11,224 nt of DNA from a virus, in UHGV virus genome UHGV-1660473. One strand, given 5' to 3'. Position numbers and translations under genes: made by a program. The notes under the pieces are model-generated. The model made no database searches and was not told the DNA's origin. It saw nothing but the letters and a program-made list of their open reading frames with translations. Positions 4,479 to 9,603 of the stretch are shown one piece after another (position 1 is the first letter of the stretch; every line of letters starts with the position of its first letter).

Positions 4479-7238
4479 TCATTCTTCAGATGAGTTATAA
4501 TCTCCTGGCTGGTAATTGAGTACATAAACGTTTATTTGTCGTCCCTGAATACGTGGTGATTTTCTTTGGTATCCACGACCGCTGTTTGGTGGGGTTAGCA
4601 TCCCGGCTTTTTTCAACACTTCAGCAAACTGTTTTGCGTTGAAACCACATGCGATCTCCTTTTCAAATGTGGCCGGGAATGTGTAGAAAATCATTGGGCT
4701 TTCGTCATGTTCTCCACGCTGACGGTATCCGGCTAAATCTTTGATGGGCAAATCTGCCGGGCTGTATGGAAATGGTGCAAAACGGCTAAGCCCATAGGCA
4801 TTAAGAAATGCCTCCGTTTGTTCAATAATCTGCTGATGTTCTTTGTTACCTGTGCCGAACTCGCGCAACCATGCGTTATAGCTGTGCTGTATCGCATCAC
4901 GGCATGTCTGAGCATCCCAGCCTGTTACAACCTCGCCTAACAGCAATGCGGCCTCCAGAATGGCAAATCGCGCGGCTACACGGTGAACCTGCTCACCATA
5001 ATCGGATGGGATCAGGCTTCTCCATCTGCTTTCGCAGTCACGAACAGTTTTAATAGCCTGTTGCTGGTGGTCTGCCAGCCATTTAATCCACTCACGCCCG
5101 GATGCGCCGTGGTGATGCTGGTAAGCGTCTTTCAGTGCGTCTGCGTGCTGTTTTCCGTTCTGGTAATCGTGAAAGCGTACTGCTTTACTCAACGGAATAT
5201 TCAGCAGTCGCACCAGTTGCCCGGCTTTGGTTTTTCGCCCGGAAGTAGCGATAAATGTTTCTAAATCCATTTCTCCAGTGCTGATTGCCACTGTACGCCA
5301 GCGTTTTAGATCCCGGTTTCCACCATCTTTAGCGCCTTGCAGTTTCCCTACACCGTTAAATAACGCATAGGCAGACTGTGAAACGCTGACAGGATCAGCG
5401 CCCTGACCAACTTCATCAAGCGGCATTAGTCCGTCATTGTGGGCGGCGGCCTCATTTGCCAGCCCCAGCGCGGTTCCGTACCACGTCAGCCGCAGTAAAT
5501 CAGGGTTGCCGTATAAGCTGCTCGCCACGTTTGCCGTGGTGGTCTTACCTGCGCTCGACTGCTCATAGAAATGAATGCCGAACCCGTCAGCGCCCACCAG
5601 CCCAATCAATGGCGCTGCCAGTGCTGCGCCGATCCCGGTCATCATTGAATAGTTACCAAAGGCCAGACGCGCCACGTTATCACGCCAGCTTTTCGCGCTC
5701 CCTGAGACGGTATATCCGGCTGCGGCTGAGCTTCTCCCGCTGAACAGCACAGGATTTTCAGGTGTTCCGATGATTTCCCCATCAGGCATGATGTACGCTC
5801 CGCATTGCCAGCCAGTGGCATGAGCAACACGCCACAATTCACGAGAGCCACTGCGTTGTAGCCAGTCTGCCAGTATTGCTCTGAGGCTGCTTTTGGTCGT
5901 GACATTTACCCCACCAGCTTTAAGTGTGCGCCATCCTTCACGTTCACCAATATCAGCCAGTGGAATGGCAGCGGTTGTCGGCGTTTCAGAACCAAACGAC
6001 AGCCAGCGAAGAATGAGATACTGGTCTTTATCGTCTCTGCCAGTACCGATAACGCTTAACGGAGAACATAACCAGCTTTCGTTATTGATGATTTCTCCAC
6101 TCTGGCTGTCAGCTCTCGGAGATACCCAATAAATACCATCCTCGCGGCTTTCTATTCTTGGTTTCAGTGGGTCGGCATCCATAACCTTAAAATCGCTTCC
6201 CTCAATGGTCTGTGGCTCCTGTTTCACGCCATTACCCTGTGGTTGGTACATTGACTTATTGAACGCTTCTGTGGCGCATTTAATGCCGTGTTTTTGGTGG
6301 TAATCATTCCAGTCTGCTTTGTGATCTGTCGGGGGTAATGCCACCCATCCAGAAACAGATAAAGCTGCTTTTTCTGCTGCTATTCTCCCCGTGTTTTGTC
6401 TTCCTTCGCTGTGGTCGTTATCCGCAGCAATGATGATTTGTGCTGAAGGAAATTTATCCCGCAGTACCTGGGCGACATATAACAGGTTCCCAGCATCAAT
6501 CGCCGCCACTGTCAGCGCCTCTGGACGAATTAAATGGGCAGATAATGCCGTTGCCAGCCCTTCTGCGATTAAGATGCTCTGTGTTGTTTCTGGTGCGTTT
6601 ATGGCGTGATATGCCCCTCGCTTTGCTGAACCTGTCAGGAGTCTTTTTTCACCATGTGAGGTAATAGTCTGTGCTGCTGTGACTGCGCCGGATTTATCCA
6701 CCAGCGCCAGCAACAGAGATCCATCGGGCAACACGGGGAATGTAAAATCACCTACCCCTTTCGCAACCAGATAATCAGATTTGCCGTTTACAGCCTTTCT
6801 GCGCATGTCATCAAACTGACGGGAAAACGTATCCCGTCTTTGTTGTTCGTCCTTCTCTGCCCTTTTCAGGCGCTCCTGTTCGCGTCGCTGGCGCTCGGTT
6901 TCCAGTTGTTCCCGTTTCTGGCTGGTGGCTTCTGGTGTTTCCGTTGTCCGGTAATCAATACCCAGAACATCAGCGGCAAGAAGCGCCGCCTCTGTTGTGT
7001 CGCAGTTATTTACGCGTTTAATTAAATCCAGCCCATCACCAGCGCCGCACTGATTACAGATGAAGCTACCGCGCCCGTTGTCATCGAACCGGAATCGATC
7101 TTTGCCCCCACATGCAGGGCAGGGAGCATGACGGCGCGGAGAGTCAGGGACATTTATGTTCAGGCAGCCCAGCACATGAGGCCAGTTGTTTTCAGACGCA
7201 CTGATAACCTGACGGATAAGATCAATGTTTCGCATCAC
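4479..7238 (-). CDS. DNA primase-helicase (zinc-binding domain + TOPRIM primase + P-loop NTPase/helicase), ~918 aa
   Basis: Complete ORF in the track. N-terminal CPACGG-x17-CNQCG zinc-ribbon motif, TOPRIM-like acidic motifs (IAEG ... AADNDHSEG), P-loop-like SSAGKTTT and Walker-B-like LMPLDE. The likely start is the ATG at about 7235, with a GTG one codon upstream. This architecture matches P4-alpha/D5-type phage primase-helicases. Confidence 0.85.
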   Translation of the reverse strand: MMRNIDLIRQVISASENNWPHVLGCLNINVPDSPRRHAPCPACGGKDRFRFDDNGRGSFICNQCGAGDGLDLIKRVNNCDTTEAALLAADVLGIDYRTTETPEATSQKREQLETERQRREQERLKRAEKDEQQRRDTFSRQFDDMRRKAVNGKSDYLVAKGVGDFTFPVLPDGSLLLALVDKSGAVTAAQTITSHGEKRLLTGSAKRGAYHAINAPETTQSILIAEGLATALSAHLIRPEALTVAAIDAGNLLYVAQVLRDKFPSAQIIIAADNDHSEGRQNTGRIAAEKAALSVSGWVALPPTDHKADWNDYHQKHGIKCATEAFNKSMYQPQGNGVKQEPQTIEGSDFKVMDADPLKPRIESREDGIYWVSPRADSQSGEIINNESWLCSPLSVIGTGRDDKDQYLILRWLSFGSETPTTAAIPLADIGEREGWRTLKAGGVNVTTKSSLRAILADWLQRSGSRELWRVAHATGWQCGAYIMPDGEIIGTPENPVLFSGRSSAAAGYTVSGSAKSWRDNVARLAFGNYSMMTGIGAALAAPLIGLVGADGFGIHFYEQSSAGKTTTANVASSLYGNPDLLRLTWYGTALGLANEAAAHNDGLMPLDEVGQGADPVSVSQSAYALFNGVGKLQGAKDGGNRDLKRWRTVAISTGEMDLETFIATSGRKTKAGQLVRLLNIPLSKAVRFHDYQNGKQHADALKDAYQHHHGASGREWIKWLADHQQQAIKTVRDCESRWRSLIPSDYGEQVHRVAARFAILEAALLLGEVVTGWDAQTCRDAIQHSYNAWLREFGTGNKEHQQIIEQTEAFLNAYGLSRFAPFPYSPADLPIKDLAGYRQRGEHDESPMIFYTFPATFEKEIACGFNAKQFAEVLKKAGMLTPPNSGRGYQRKSPRIQGRQINVYVLNYQPGDYNSSEE

Positions 7239-7593
7239 CGTACCCCACGTGGTCTATAGCGTTTGCGATATGGCTAACCAGCATCTGCCACTTGGTTATT
7301 CCGTAATCAGTCAGCATGCCATCATTGTTTAGCCACATATCAAATTCAGCGGTTGTCGCAAGTTTCCACTTATCGCCGTGGACAGTCCTCATTGCTGGGT
7401 ACATGAATGCGCAAATCAGATCACAAACATCTGACGGCTTCAGAGATGTAGTAATGGTGCGTCCCTCTGGCGTCTGAATTGCCATTTTCTCTTCACCAGT
7501 AGAATGAAGGTTATGAATCCACACAGCACCAGCAATCTTTGCCACCTGCTCTCCGATTGCGGAGCTAAGCGCCATTTCTGCATTTTCACGCAT
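7222..7593 (-). CDS. Hypothetical protein, 123 aa
   Basis: Complete ORF in the track. Overlaps the primase start by ~14 nt and the upstream gene by 8 nt, consistent with translational coupling. Confidence 0.65.
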   Translation of the reverse strand: MRENAEMALSSAIGEQVAKIAGAVWIHNLHSTGEEKMAIQTPEGRTITTSLKPSDVCDLICAFMYPAMRTVHGDKWKLATTAEFDMWLNNDGMLTDYGITKWQMLVSHIANAIDHVGYGDAKH

Positions 7594-7927
7594 GAGAACC
7601 TCCCGCTACAGTTGCGCCCATGTCATTAACCATGCTTTGCCATATCTCACGCCCGACGTCAGTCAATCCGTCCTTAGTGACGCAACGCTCAAGAAGCTCG
7701 ATCCCCACGGTTTCCCACTGCGGGTAGAACACTTTCATGGCTGCCAGTGTGTAGCTATCGATCAGGCTGCGAACGCCTTTTACTCCATTGACGATTTCCA
7801 CACGTACGGCCTCGCCGTCCGCATCAACCATGAAATAGTCCCCGCCGCTGGTGGAGGTAATGTGGTTATACAGTGCCGACGCATACTTATTTGCCAGCGC
7901 ATTCAGTCGGAAATTTTTAGTAATCAT
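7586..7927 (-). CDS. Hypothetical protein, 113 aa
   Basis: Complete ORF in the track. SD-like GAGGATGGAG precedes the ATG at 7927. Confidence 0.65.
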   Translation of the reverse strand: MITKNFRLNALANKYASALYNHITSTSGGDYFMVDADGEAVRVEIVNGVKGVRSLIDSYTLAAMKVFYPQWETVGIELLERCVTKDGLTDVGREIWQSMVNDMGATVAGGSHA

Positions 7928-7937
7928 GGCTCCATCC

Positions 7938-9014: not shown

Positions 9015-9205
9015 TTTTCACCCCCAAGAATTACCAGCTCGGCACGGGCATCGTTAACCAAAGATGAGCACGCTTTAATCGCATCCACGACATCAGTAGC
9101 GTCCATTTCTTCAGCCGAAAGACTGACAGCAACCAGGACAGCCGCTGCTTGCTCGATTAATTGAAGTGCGGACGTAAGTCGAGGGGCATTAATTGAGTTA
9201 TTCAT
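9011..9205 (-). CDS. Hypothetical small protein, ~64 aa (internal ATG of track ORF 9011..9262)
   Basis: ATG at 9205 (MNNSINAPRL...) is preceded by a G-rich SD-like run and overlaps the upstream stop by 8 nt. Confidence 0.5.
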   Translation of the reverse strand: MNNSINAPRLTSALQLIEQAAAVLVAVSLSAEEMDATDVVDAIKACSSLVNDARAELVILGGEK

Positions 9206-9416
9206 TGGTTGCCCCCGTTTTTCCTGGCATTTCGCCACCTTCCAGCAGGAAATGAACGTCACGAACGGCGAGATCCAATATCGCGAGTAACGCCTTCAGT
9301 CTTTCGTCTCGTGAGGGAGAGTTGCTCACCAGAATGTCGTTAATCACTTCTGTCAGTGTGATGATCTGGCTTGTGCGTTCGAGGGGATCCATATGCACAT
9401 CGTAGGTTTTAATCAT
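9198..9416 (-). CDS. Hypothetical small protein, 72 aa (C-terminal segment of the long track ORF 9198..10235)
   Basis: ATG at about 9416 (MIKTYDVHMDPLER...) is preceded by GGAGG at ~6 nt. Upstream of this point the same frame turns into low-complexity, non-protein-like sequence. Confidence 0.5.
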   Translation of the reverse strand: MIKTYDVHMDPLERTSQIITLTEVINDILVSNSPSRDERLKALLAILDLAVRDVHFLLEGGEMPGKTGATNE

Positions 9417-9603
9417 GTGCCACCTCCATGCGGATACGACCAGCAAAAAAGCAGATGTGATCGCGCACCAGAGAACGGCGAGCATCGCGTTCAGACTCGG
9501 CAGCAATATGATGAATTTTGGCGGTAATTGTCGGGCAATCGCGGCGAACTGCGGCGATAATCCAGATAAATTGCGGTTTTTGGGTAGGGGTAGTAGCCAG
9601 CAT
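9409..9603 (-). CDS. Hypothetical small protein, ~64 aa; first gene of the small-gene chain
   Basis: ATG at 9603 (MLATTPTQKPQF...) is preceded by GGAGG at ~8 nt. Enterobacterial-type codon usage. Its stop overlaps the next start by 8 nt. Confidence 0.45.
   Translation of the reverse strand: MLATTPTQKPQFIWIIAAVRRDCPTITAKIHHIAAESERDARRSLVRDHICFFAGRIRMEVAHD

Follow-up and report, generated by a model that had tools for sequence, protein, structure and literature searches.

The closest described relative of the DNA analyzed here is EcCIMP1, the phage-inducible chromosomal island (PICI) of Escherichia coli strain MP1 (Pick, Stadel and Raivio, ISME J 2025; PMC11773190; GenBank OR778291 / CP139039). 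Excision, circularization and transduction of EcCIMP1 were shown experimentally to occur only with the P22-like helper phage Kapi1, and alpA is its required, helper-induced master regulator (PMC11773190). We analyzed UHGV virus genome UHGV-1660473, a stretch of 11,224 nucleotides hereafter called the window, in which a chain of eight small open reading frames (ORFs), designated g1 to g8, precedes a primase gene (pri). An earlier reading of this sequence (the original prediction) had presented the eight as early genes of a phage, serving host takeover, anti-restriction or anti-defense. Our data indicate, with a probability that we put at roughly three in four, that they are the small-gene part of an EcCIMP1 early operon that ends in the primase and lies behind an RNA switch.

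EcCIMP1 adds superinfection immunity against Kapi1 in Kapi1 lysogens by a mechanism left unexplained, and its authors found no defense system with PADLOC or DefenseFinder (PMC11773190). The eight genes are treated as hypothetical proteins in that paper and were not characterized; its full text contains no occurrence of 'Icd' and no mention of the C4 or isrK RNAs (PMC11773190). Gram-negative PICIs in general comprise four ordered zones (integration, Bro/immunity RNA, replication and late), and an origin downstream of pri is one of their stated features (PMC10111431). Matches to C4 and isrK in these islands, as well as the regulatory logic that they share with eta, kil and cI of the satellite P4, have been noted before (PMC10111431). 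In P4, the kil gene lies within eta, whose translation overrides RNA-mediated termination (PMC10111431).

Two further systems bear on the locus. The Icd protein of phage P1 blocks cell division (PMC8201110), and icd expression is required in P1 for expression of the downstream ant gene (PMC8201110). In E. coli ECOR61, the phage accessory gene orf24, located by ocr, sets off cell death, for which a 'prophage' locus is needed (Silas et al., bioRxiv 10.1101/2023.04.06.535777). Tn5 suppressors of this effect mapped to an Icd-like gene and two overlapping small genes (QOYT01000045.1:9309-9675, 9131-9317 and 8940-9132), and its reconstitution needed six linked genes, including a primase (bioRxiv 10.1101/2023.04.06.535777).

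Relationship to EcCIMP1

Positions 50-9615 of the window share 98.8% nucleotide identity with EcCIMP1 in strain MP1. The g1-g8 proteins are 91-100% identical to their EcCIMP1 counterparts and occur in the same order, and the primase protein is 99.3% identical to the EcCIMP1 primase. Across positions 50-9715, the window is 99.5% identical to E. coli chromosomes, and 64 complete genomes span at least 80% of it. In the matching genomes, the segment belongs to an island inserted at the tRNA-Thr gene adjoining proA, which is also the integration site of EcCIMP1.

The native order in these genomes is tRNA-Thr, int, alpA (PF05930), a 143-aa gene, AntA/B, DUF4222, Ash, the chain and pri, followed by a 53-aa ORF, P22-type DUF2824, gp7, gp20 and gp16-like genes and a perC-type regulator. 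Two native elements, L001 and L086 (related loci are given L numbers; L086 is EcCIMP1 in MP1), have co-oriented genes for AlpA (PF05930, E = 7e-20), a tyrosine integrase and the primase, the combination that marks a Gram-negative PICI. The four PICI zones can be followed along the native element as int-alpA, then AntA/B-DUF4222-Ash with isrK and C4, then the small genes, pri and the origin, and finally the P22-type late genes. The window differs from EcCIMP1 in lacking the int-alpA-antA side and in carrying foreign DNA at both ends: the int and alpA landmarks belong to the native element, and the window holds pri and the chain.

The 98.8% identity to a published and validated PICI places the operon, at the level of sequence, in a phage satellite (EcCIMP1 or a near-identical relative) and not in a phage. 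The early and accessory character of the genes and their co-orientation with the replication gene, as originally proposed, are retained, but their owner is the satellite EcCIMP1. The element, its annotation and its type of regulation have already been described, and the region is the early operon of a known PICI.

Organization and coding potential of the chain

Every long ORF of the window lies on the minus strand. The eight ORFs of the chain, 64-200 aa in length, fill positions 7222-9603, and their coordinates confirm the predicted location directly upstream of the primase.

9409-9603, minus strand: g1, Icd-like, 64 aa (NF033153)
9198-9416, minus strand: g2, 72 aa, acidic; no family match
9011-9205, minus strand: g3, 64 aa, acidic; present in 3 of 77 loci
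8751-9014, minus strand: g4, 87 aa, acidic; present in 19 of 77 loci
8533-8754, minus strand: g5, 73 aa, acidic (phrog_20558)
7938-8540, minus strand: g6, 200 aa, strongly acidic (phrog_1515)
7586-7927, minus strand: g7, 113 aa; compact predicted fold
7222-7593, minus strand: g8, 123 aa; tandem paralogue of g7 by BLASTP and hhalign
4479-7238, minus strand: pri, primase-helicase with Zn ribbon, Toprim and DUF927 domains (PF08273, PF13362, PF06048), the last gene in the chain

The junctions from g1 to g6 read, in order, ATGATTAA, ATGAATAA, ATGA, ATGA and ATGAATAA, and the g7/g8 junction reads ATGCGTGA. The description of the genes as tightly packed through ATGA or 8-nt overlaps holds for six of the seven internal junctions, at which stop and start codons overlap by 4 or 8 nt, and fails at g6/g7, where a 10-nt spacer forms the sole non-overlapping junction. 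Overlaps of -4, -8 and -11 nt also predominate among 226 junctions in relatives. The end of g8 overlaps the start of pri by 17 nt, if pri begins at GTG, or by 14 nt, if it begins at ATG, and g8 and pri are therefore translationally linked. A GGAGG, GGGGG or GAGG-type motif lies 4-8 nt 5' of every start in the chain, in line with the expectation that each ORF has a Shine-Dalgarno-like sequence of its own. A scan for minus-strand promoter-like or terminator-like sites inside the chain detected none.

Minus-strand ORFs with a length of 60 aa or more take up 99.6% of the region; in 500 shuffles this share averaged 22% and never exceeded 77%. Protein-guided alignments with homologues in other species revealed, for all eight ORFs, a coding-type distribution of substitutions over codon positions (3 > 1 > 2), with shares of 0.23/0.14/0.62 in the case of g1. 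Moreover, all eight proteins have homologues elsewhere, including in other genera. Taken with the motif at every start, these results argue strongly against the notion that the ORFs, or some of them, are open merely by chance, to which we give almost no credence even though g2 is unannotated or merged in RefSeq and g2, g3 and g8 are rare. The eight ORFs are real, co-oriented genes running straight into pri.

A predicted antisense RNA switch upstream of g1

In the native loci, isrK (60-69 bits), a relative of P4 seqA, accompanies a C4 RNA that lies immediately upstream of g1 on the same strand; its Rfam family (RF01695) takes in P1/P7 c4 and relatives of P4 CI. With a gathering score of 45, C4 reaches 79.5 bits in L001 and 81.1 in L086. 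An Rfam scan of the window at gathering thresholds returned no matches. The C4 score of the window reaches only 23.4 bits (E = 0.054), below the gathering score, because foreign DNA has replaced the 5' third of the RNA, including the 5' strand of its stem. The following parts of the switch are found in the window.

9657-9715, minus strand: C4/CI-type antisense RNA (RF01695), native 3' two-thirds (full model 9657-9743)
9693-9701, minus strand: C4 loop b, second hairpin, UCCAUUCGA, complement of b'
9679-9685, minus strand: C4 segment a, ACGCCAA, complement of a'
9611-9652, minus strand: icd leader with both target sites
9646-9652, minus strand: target a', UUGGCGU, perfect complement of a
9613-9621, minus strand: target b', UCGAAUGGA, perfect complement of loop b

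The icd ATG (9603) is preceded at a distance of 7 nt by the Shine-Dalgarno sequence GGAGG (9611-9615), which b' overlaps. As the duplex energy of the full-length C4 and leader is uninformative (the calculation unfolds C4), we relied instead on a test of covariation between loop and target. Nine distinct loop sequences occur in 16 loci, each with a perfect complement of 8-9 nt in its own leader that ends 9-11 nt before the icd ATG. Cognate loop/target pairs average 8.75 nt, as opposed to 3.74 nt for non-cognate pairs. The a/a' pair covaries as well, in L002 and L010. In 9 of 11 loci, isrK holds a further covarying complement of the loop, approximately 240 nt before icd. The C4 loop has two targets by complementarity, one at the icd ribosome binding site (RBS) and one in isrK, and both pairings covary. 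By these covarying loop/target pairs, enterobacterial PICIs fall into specificity classes of RNA immunity.

A TATAAT box located approximately 25 nt upstream of the C4 5' end is kept in most related loci (L001, ~21740-21760) and lost in the window; the promoter scan missed it because it is not accompanied by a good -35 element. The box suggests that C4 has a dedicated promoter, situated between the isrK terminator and C4. Comparable promoters of their own serve the immunity RNAs of P1 (P51) and P4 (PLE).

The arrangement resembles the P4 immunity region (seqA-cI-seqC), in which an antisense RNA is likewise positioned between two complementary targets, here a seqA-like site upstream in isrK and a seqC-like site downstream. 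In both satellites the RNA genes lie within an ORF of the Bro network (Eta in P4, Ash here), and a small toxic or division-blocking protein starts in or after that ORF (Kil in P4, Icd here). The P4 left (alpha) operon leads through small ORFs, including epsilon, to the alpha primase, as the small ORFs here lead to a Toprim and DUF927 primase. The two differ in that the downstream target here overlaps the icd RBS, as in P1, and in that icd is frame-shifted from Ash by 1 nt. The likeness to P4 is one of regulatory layout only. Homologues of sid, delta, psu and epsilon were not detected, the native island bears no annotation of psu, delta, sid or alpha primase, and the element is not a P4-like satellite in the SatelliteFinder sense.

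The P1/P7 immI region (c4-icd-ant1/2) shares with the present locus a C4-family RNA upstream on the same strand, the a/a' and b/b' pairs, a b' target that covers the icd RBS and an Icd-like first cistron that overlaps the next gene, with translational coupling. After icd, however, immI continues with an antirepressor, whereas seven small genes and a primase follow here. We searched the genes downstream of icd for Ant, AntA, KilA-N and Bro domains and found none, and the AntA/B gene precedes the RNA switch. The details of the c4 mechanism in P1 were reportedly worked out by Citron and Schuster in 1990 and by Riedel et al. in 1993, and those of the CI mechanism in P4 are said to come from Sabbattini et al. 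in 1995 and Forti et al. in 1999.

The Icd-like protein and the Ash reading frame

The g1 protein matches the Icd-like family NF033153 over the entire profile (positions 1-48 of 48; E = 1.3e-19, 69.9 bits, the cutoff being 25), and it also matches phrog_1743 and phrog_6928. These profile matches identify g1 as an Icd-like member of a cell-division inhibitor family. The protein is basic (isoelectric point (pI) 9.5), and an alternative upstream ATG is found at 9627. The original prediction had assigned an unknown function to all eight genes, which stands for g2-g8 and not for g1; the idea of host-takeover genes finds support in the first gene, by virtue of its family.

RefSeq treats g2 inconsistently, merging it in some genomes into a 355-aa 'ash family protein'. 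In strain MP1, a pseudo-Ash and Icd are annotated and g2 is left unannotated. The Pfam Phage_ASH domain of the 355-aa ORF coincides exactly with isrK, C4 and the icd leader (L001 21543-21869), and a remnant of Ash persists in the window at 9572-9715. The Ash frame is without codon periodicity (19/17/19 in isrK and 28/22/29 in C4), the corresponding values for the icd frame being 32/26/76. The isrK 3' end, an intrinsic-terminator-like hairpin, falls within the Ash ORF.

A single in-frame ORF comprises Ash and Icd in ten relatives; in five, including the present lineage, a 1-nt difference shifts icd out of the Ash frame and icd has its own ATG. The GGAGG preceding this ATG is conserved in both frame types, and g2 is in the same reading frame as the upstream Ash ORF. 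We softened our view of the Ash ORF as merely a spurious translation of RNA genes, as its P4 equivalent, eta, is translated and has a regulatory role (PMC10111431). The Ash region is probably an eta/kil/cI arrangement of the P4 type rather than an ordinary protein gene. This nested layout explains the inconsistent RefSeq annotation, which sometimes absorbs g2 into Ash and in which 'ash family protein' ORFs overlie two RNA genes.

The Ash frame is open across the entire icd gene in all five frame-shifted loci (L002, L006, L031, L043 and L054), and in four of them it continues open into the next gene, which is g2 in the present lineage. This persistently open frame may reflect shared ancestry, sequence composition or a functional read-through product.

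Proteins g2 to g8

Scans against Pfam, PHROG, NCBIfam and PADLOC agree that none of g1-g8 has a recognizable catalytic domain, as had been noticed from the sequence. Homology to replication-accessory or structural proteins, an outcome that the original prediction had named as speaking against it, was found for none of the eight. Known anti-restriction and anti-defense families in Pfam, PHROGs and NCBIfam were not matched by any of g1-g8, and a scan of PADLOC-DB revealed no defense system and two marginal matches only (E about 0.003-0.006).

The g2-g8 proteins are acidic, with pI values of 4.2-5.6, and contain no hydrophobic segments; g6 carries a net charge of -21 over 200 aa. None of them matches a Pfam or NCBIfam family, and g5 (phrog_20558, E = 2.9e-9), g6 (phrog_1515, E = 2.7e-47) and g7 match PHROG families of unknown function. 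PDB sequence searches, carried out only for g1, g4 and g5 and with the g6 and g7 profiles, yielded nothing credible. A PPR match of g6 and an LSm6 match of g7 were marginal, and we discarded as an artefact a PDB match of g4 to the designed repeat protein 7ong, which contains no significant stretch.

The sequence GGAGGTG precedes the ATG of g2, and homologues with 39-45% identity occupy the same position in L015, L031 and L043. The g3 protein appears helical by sequence inspection only. We compared the chain families with hhalign (91 comparisons, corrected for multiple testing). The alignments of g3 with the ~65-aa families F9 (E = 1.4e-3) and g5 (E = 1.2e-3) are not significant after correction, and that of g5 with the neighboring small family F23 (E = 4.8e-5) survives. 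We therefore rejected a superfamily of ~65-aa helical proteins comprising g3, g5, F9 and F23, of which only the g5-F23 link remains.

The g7 and g8 proteins align with each other in BLASTP (E = 5e-4 over 97 residues), their families align in hhalign (E = 1.2e-5 over 89 columns), and the joint alignment is coherent. These similarities identify g7 and g8 as paralogues, which belong to a rare family of 21 clusters at 90% identity. The predicted model of g7 is a confident compact fold made of a helix, a β-hairpin and three helices, and a structural search with this model found no relative. The C-terminal half of g6 aligns with g7 and g8 in the same register (hhalign E = 0.012 and 0.006) and shares with them a G-LT-x-GRE motif; neither score is significant after correction, and the alignment is suggestive of a g7/g8 domain in this half of g6. 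The g6 family counts 146 representatives (50%-identity clusters) among 1.84 billion proteins. We looked for informative domain fusions in this family and found none, an 882-aa match being a repetitive artefact, and the AlphaFold model of g6 computed from 41 homologues was unusable (predicted local distance difference test score 42.5).

Gene turnover among relatives

A primase-anchored scan delivered 77 loci in Enterobacterales, all of which contain the primase. The chain genes are present in widely differing numbers of these loci: g6 in 34, g1 in 28, g7 in 22, g5 in 20, g4 in 19, g2 in 5, and g3 and g8 in 3 each. Such a range agrees with the high turnover that had been anticipated for accessory genes. 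The backbone of the operon in relatives consists of AlpA, the 143-aa protein, AntA/B, an optional DUF4222, Ash/Icd, variable small genes and the primase. At a primase identity of ~80%, the small proteins are 38-65% identical.

The small genes also change partners. In E. coli, a g1-g6 block with ~95% identity leads to a DUF5906 replication protein, g7 and g8 being absent, g6- and g7-like genes also precede a P4-family primase, and many loci with a closely related primase have none of g6-g8. Homologues of g6 with 31-37% identity reside in the early-left operons of phiP27, Stx phages, Klebsiella prophages and CharmingMan, and a g7 homologue is found in the early-left arm of phi467. In phiP27, the Stx phages, CharmingMan and phi467, these homologues are flanked by the repressor on one side and xis/int on the other, at a distance from the genes for replication. 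Since the same small genes occur beside three unrelated replication proteins and in the early-left arms of phages, we interpret them as portable accessory cassettes and not as dedicated partners of the primase.

In the E. coli variants L080, L084 and L085, regulatory and small-gene modules that are almost identical are coupled to three replication proteins unrelated to one another (Toprim and DUF927, P4-family primase, and DUF5906) and to varying cargo (SSB, perC, ejection genes). One recombination breakpoint in these variants is the g6/g7 boundary, the only non-overlapping junction of the chain. Genes of the enterobacterial PICI type were also encountered in a Chryseobacterium sp. 18061 contig (L004) and in Elizabethkingia phage EKP1 (OM284015.1), with identities of 78% for the primase, 64% for g7 and 35-59% for g6. 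Their presence in these Bacteroidota-labelled records is probably due to contamination or mislabelling.

A model of the operon and its alternatives

We propose the following working of the early operon in the native island, modelled on P4 and P1. While the island is quiescent, the antisense RNA would mask the icd RBS and promote premature termination, keeping g2-g8 and pri silent. Upon induction of AlpA by the helper, transcription and translation through the Ash ORF would override the RNA block, and the chain would then be translated by coupling from icd through pri. The Icd-like g1 would probably arrest host division while the primase replicates the island, and g2-g8, exchanged like cassettes, would most likely bind host or helper-phage proteins.

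Several points weigh against this reading. The window itself has a truncated C4 and contains no isrK, alpA or int; since its upstream flank is foreign, the switch model applies to the native element and not to the window. The regulatory model combines covariation with analogy to P4 and P1, and RNA processing, the translation block and premature termination are carried over from P4 and P1. Inhibition of division by g1 is what membership of the Icd-like family would lead one to expect. Finally, g2-g8 have no assignable function or partner, g7 has no known fold and g6 has no usable model.

An alternative that is compatible with the early-operon reading, and that we regard as possible, is that the chain as a whole, or the primase with the first genes of the chain, forms a module for cell death or superinfection exclusion triggered by phage. 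The trigger would be a phage protein acting on the Icd-like effector and its small partners, which would account for the immunity of EcCIMP1 against Kapi1, for which neither the authors nor our PADLOC scan found a known defense system. The ECOR61 cell-death locus has the same layout, namely an Icd-like gene, overlapping ORFs of ~60 aa and a linked DNA primase in an integrated element. This comparison is by layout. The ECOR61 Icd-like protein has 121 aa, with an N-terminal extension, as against 64 aa here, and the ECOR61 small genes encode 61 and 63 aa, which differ from g2 (72 aa) and g3 (64 aa). ECOR61 responds to orf24, whereas no trigger is known for EcCIMP1. The turnover of g2 and g3 (5 and 3 of 77 loci) also argues against a conserved machine of many parts. 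Somewhat more speculative is the proposal that icd, g2, g3 and further genes through pri constitute a new growth-arrest module of the satellite, homologous or analogous to that of ECOR61, which would cause the EcCIMP1 immunity, with g7/g8 and g6 as putative sensors or inhibitors of helper proteins. The superinfection immunity of EcCIMP1 and the ECOR61 cell-death locus, which are unconnected in print, may share this gene chain as their cause.

The small proteins could instead be anti-restriction or anti-defense factors, for instance DNA mimics or inhibitors, that protect the satellite or its helper. This is unlikely in our view, although their small size and acidity (with a charge of -21 for g6), rapid cassette-like turnover and place in an early operon would suit such a role, as would the homologues of g6 and g7 in the early-left accessory regions of temperate phages. 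The acidity is weak evidence when taken alone, no known family of this kind was matched in Pfam, PHROGs or NCBIfam, and the g7 model has no structural relative. The RNA switch would keep the genes off in the resident island, which fits a role at entry or induction without pointing to one. We are still more doubtful that g6, g7 and g8 are accessory proteins of the primase-helicase, such as a loader, an origin-binding factor or a recruiter. The g6 and g7 genes directly precede the primase in many loci (34 and 22 of 77), rank in our analysis as the most conserved members, and are followed here by g8, which overlaps the pri start. However, the g1-g6 block is found beside an unrelated DUF5906 protein and relatives of g6 and g7 beside a P4-family primase, the phiP27, CharmingMan and phi467 homologues lie in the early-left arm away from replication genes, many loci with a close primase lack g6-g8, and no DNA-binding or ATPase motif was found. 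The early-operon reading leaves seven conserved small proteins, one of which has a confident orphan fold, in the tractable satellite-helper pair EcCIMP1 and Kapi1.

Window ends

Outside the junctions at 49/50 and 9715/9716, the window ends (1-49 and 9716-11224) matched nothing in E. coli.

9716-11224, no strand assigned: foreign DNA outside the element, holding a serine recombinase and fragments that flank it; no E. coli match past 9715
9925-10914, minus strand: truncated large serine recombinase with Resolvase and Recombinase domains, C-terminal half missing

The best DNA matches of the flank with the serine recombinase are gut Firmicutes phages (67-71% identity), whose integrases it resembles. 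The 9715/9716 junction interrupts both the C4 RNA gene and the Ash ORF, and the Pfam Ash match in the window begins at profile position 58 of 107, exactly at this break. With a junction in the middle of a conserved RNA gene and ends that match no E. coli DNA, the window appears to be chimeric, having arisen either in assembly or as a construct.

Origin and ejection genes

The genes and sites beyond pri are as follows.

4342-4453, no strand assigned: origin-like iterons in an AT-rich spacer just downstream of pri
3255-3716, minus strand: DUF2824, P22-type ejection module
2584-3261, minus strand: gp7 (PF25688)
1265-2584, minus strand: gp20-like translocase (PF16928)

The spacer downstream of pri is the part of the window with the lowest GC content. 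Six 9-nt units, three copies of GTTGGTTCA and three inverted copies of TGAACCAAC, are located 26 nt past the pri stop codon, and positions 4342-4453 are a probable replication origin. A 64-nt copy of positions 4397-4460, inverted and 93.8% identical, is found near perC of EcCIMP1 in MP1 (L086 2729-2793).

The ejection module (1265-3716) runs on to the start of the window, and the native element adds to it a gp16-like protein of 906 aa that contains a lytic transglycosylase domain. As these genes are of the P22 type and the helper Kapi1 is P22-like, the satellite may supply its own DNA-ejection proteins.

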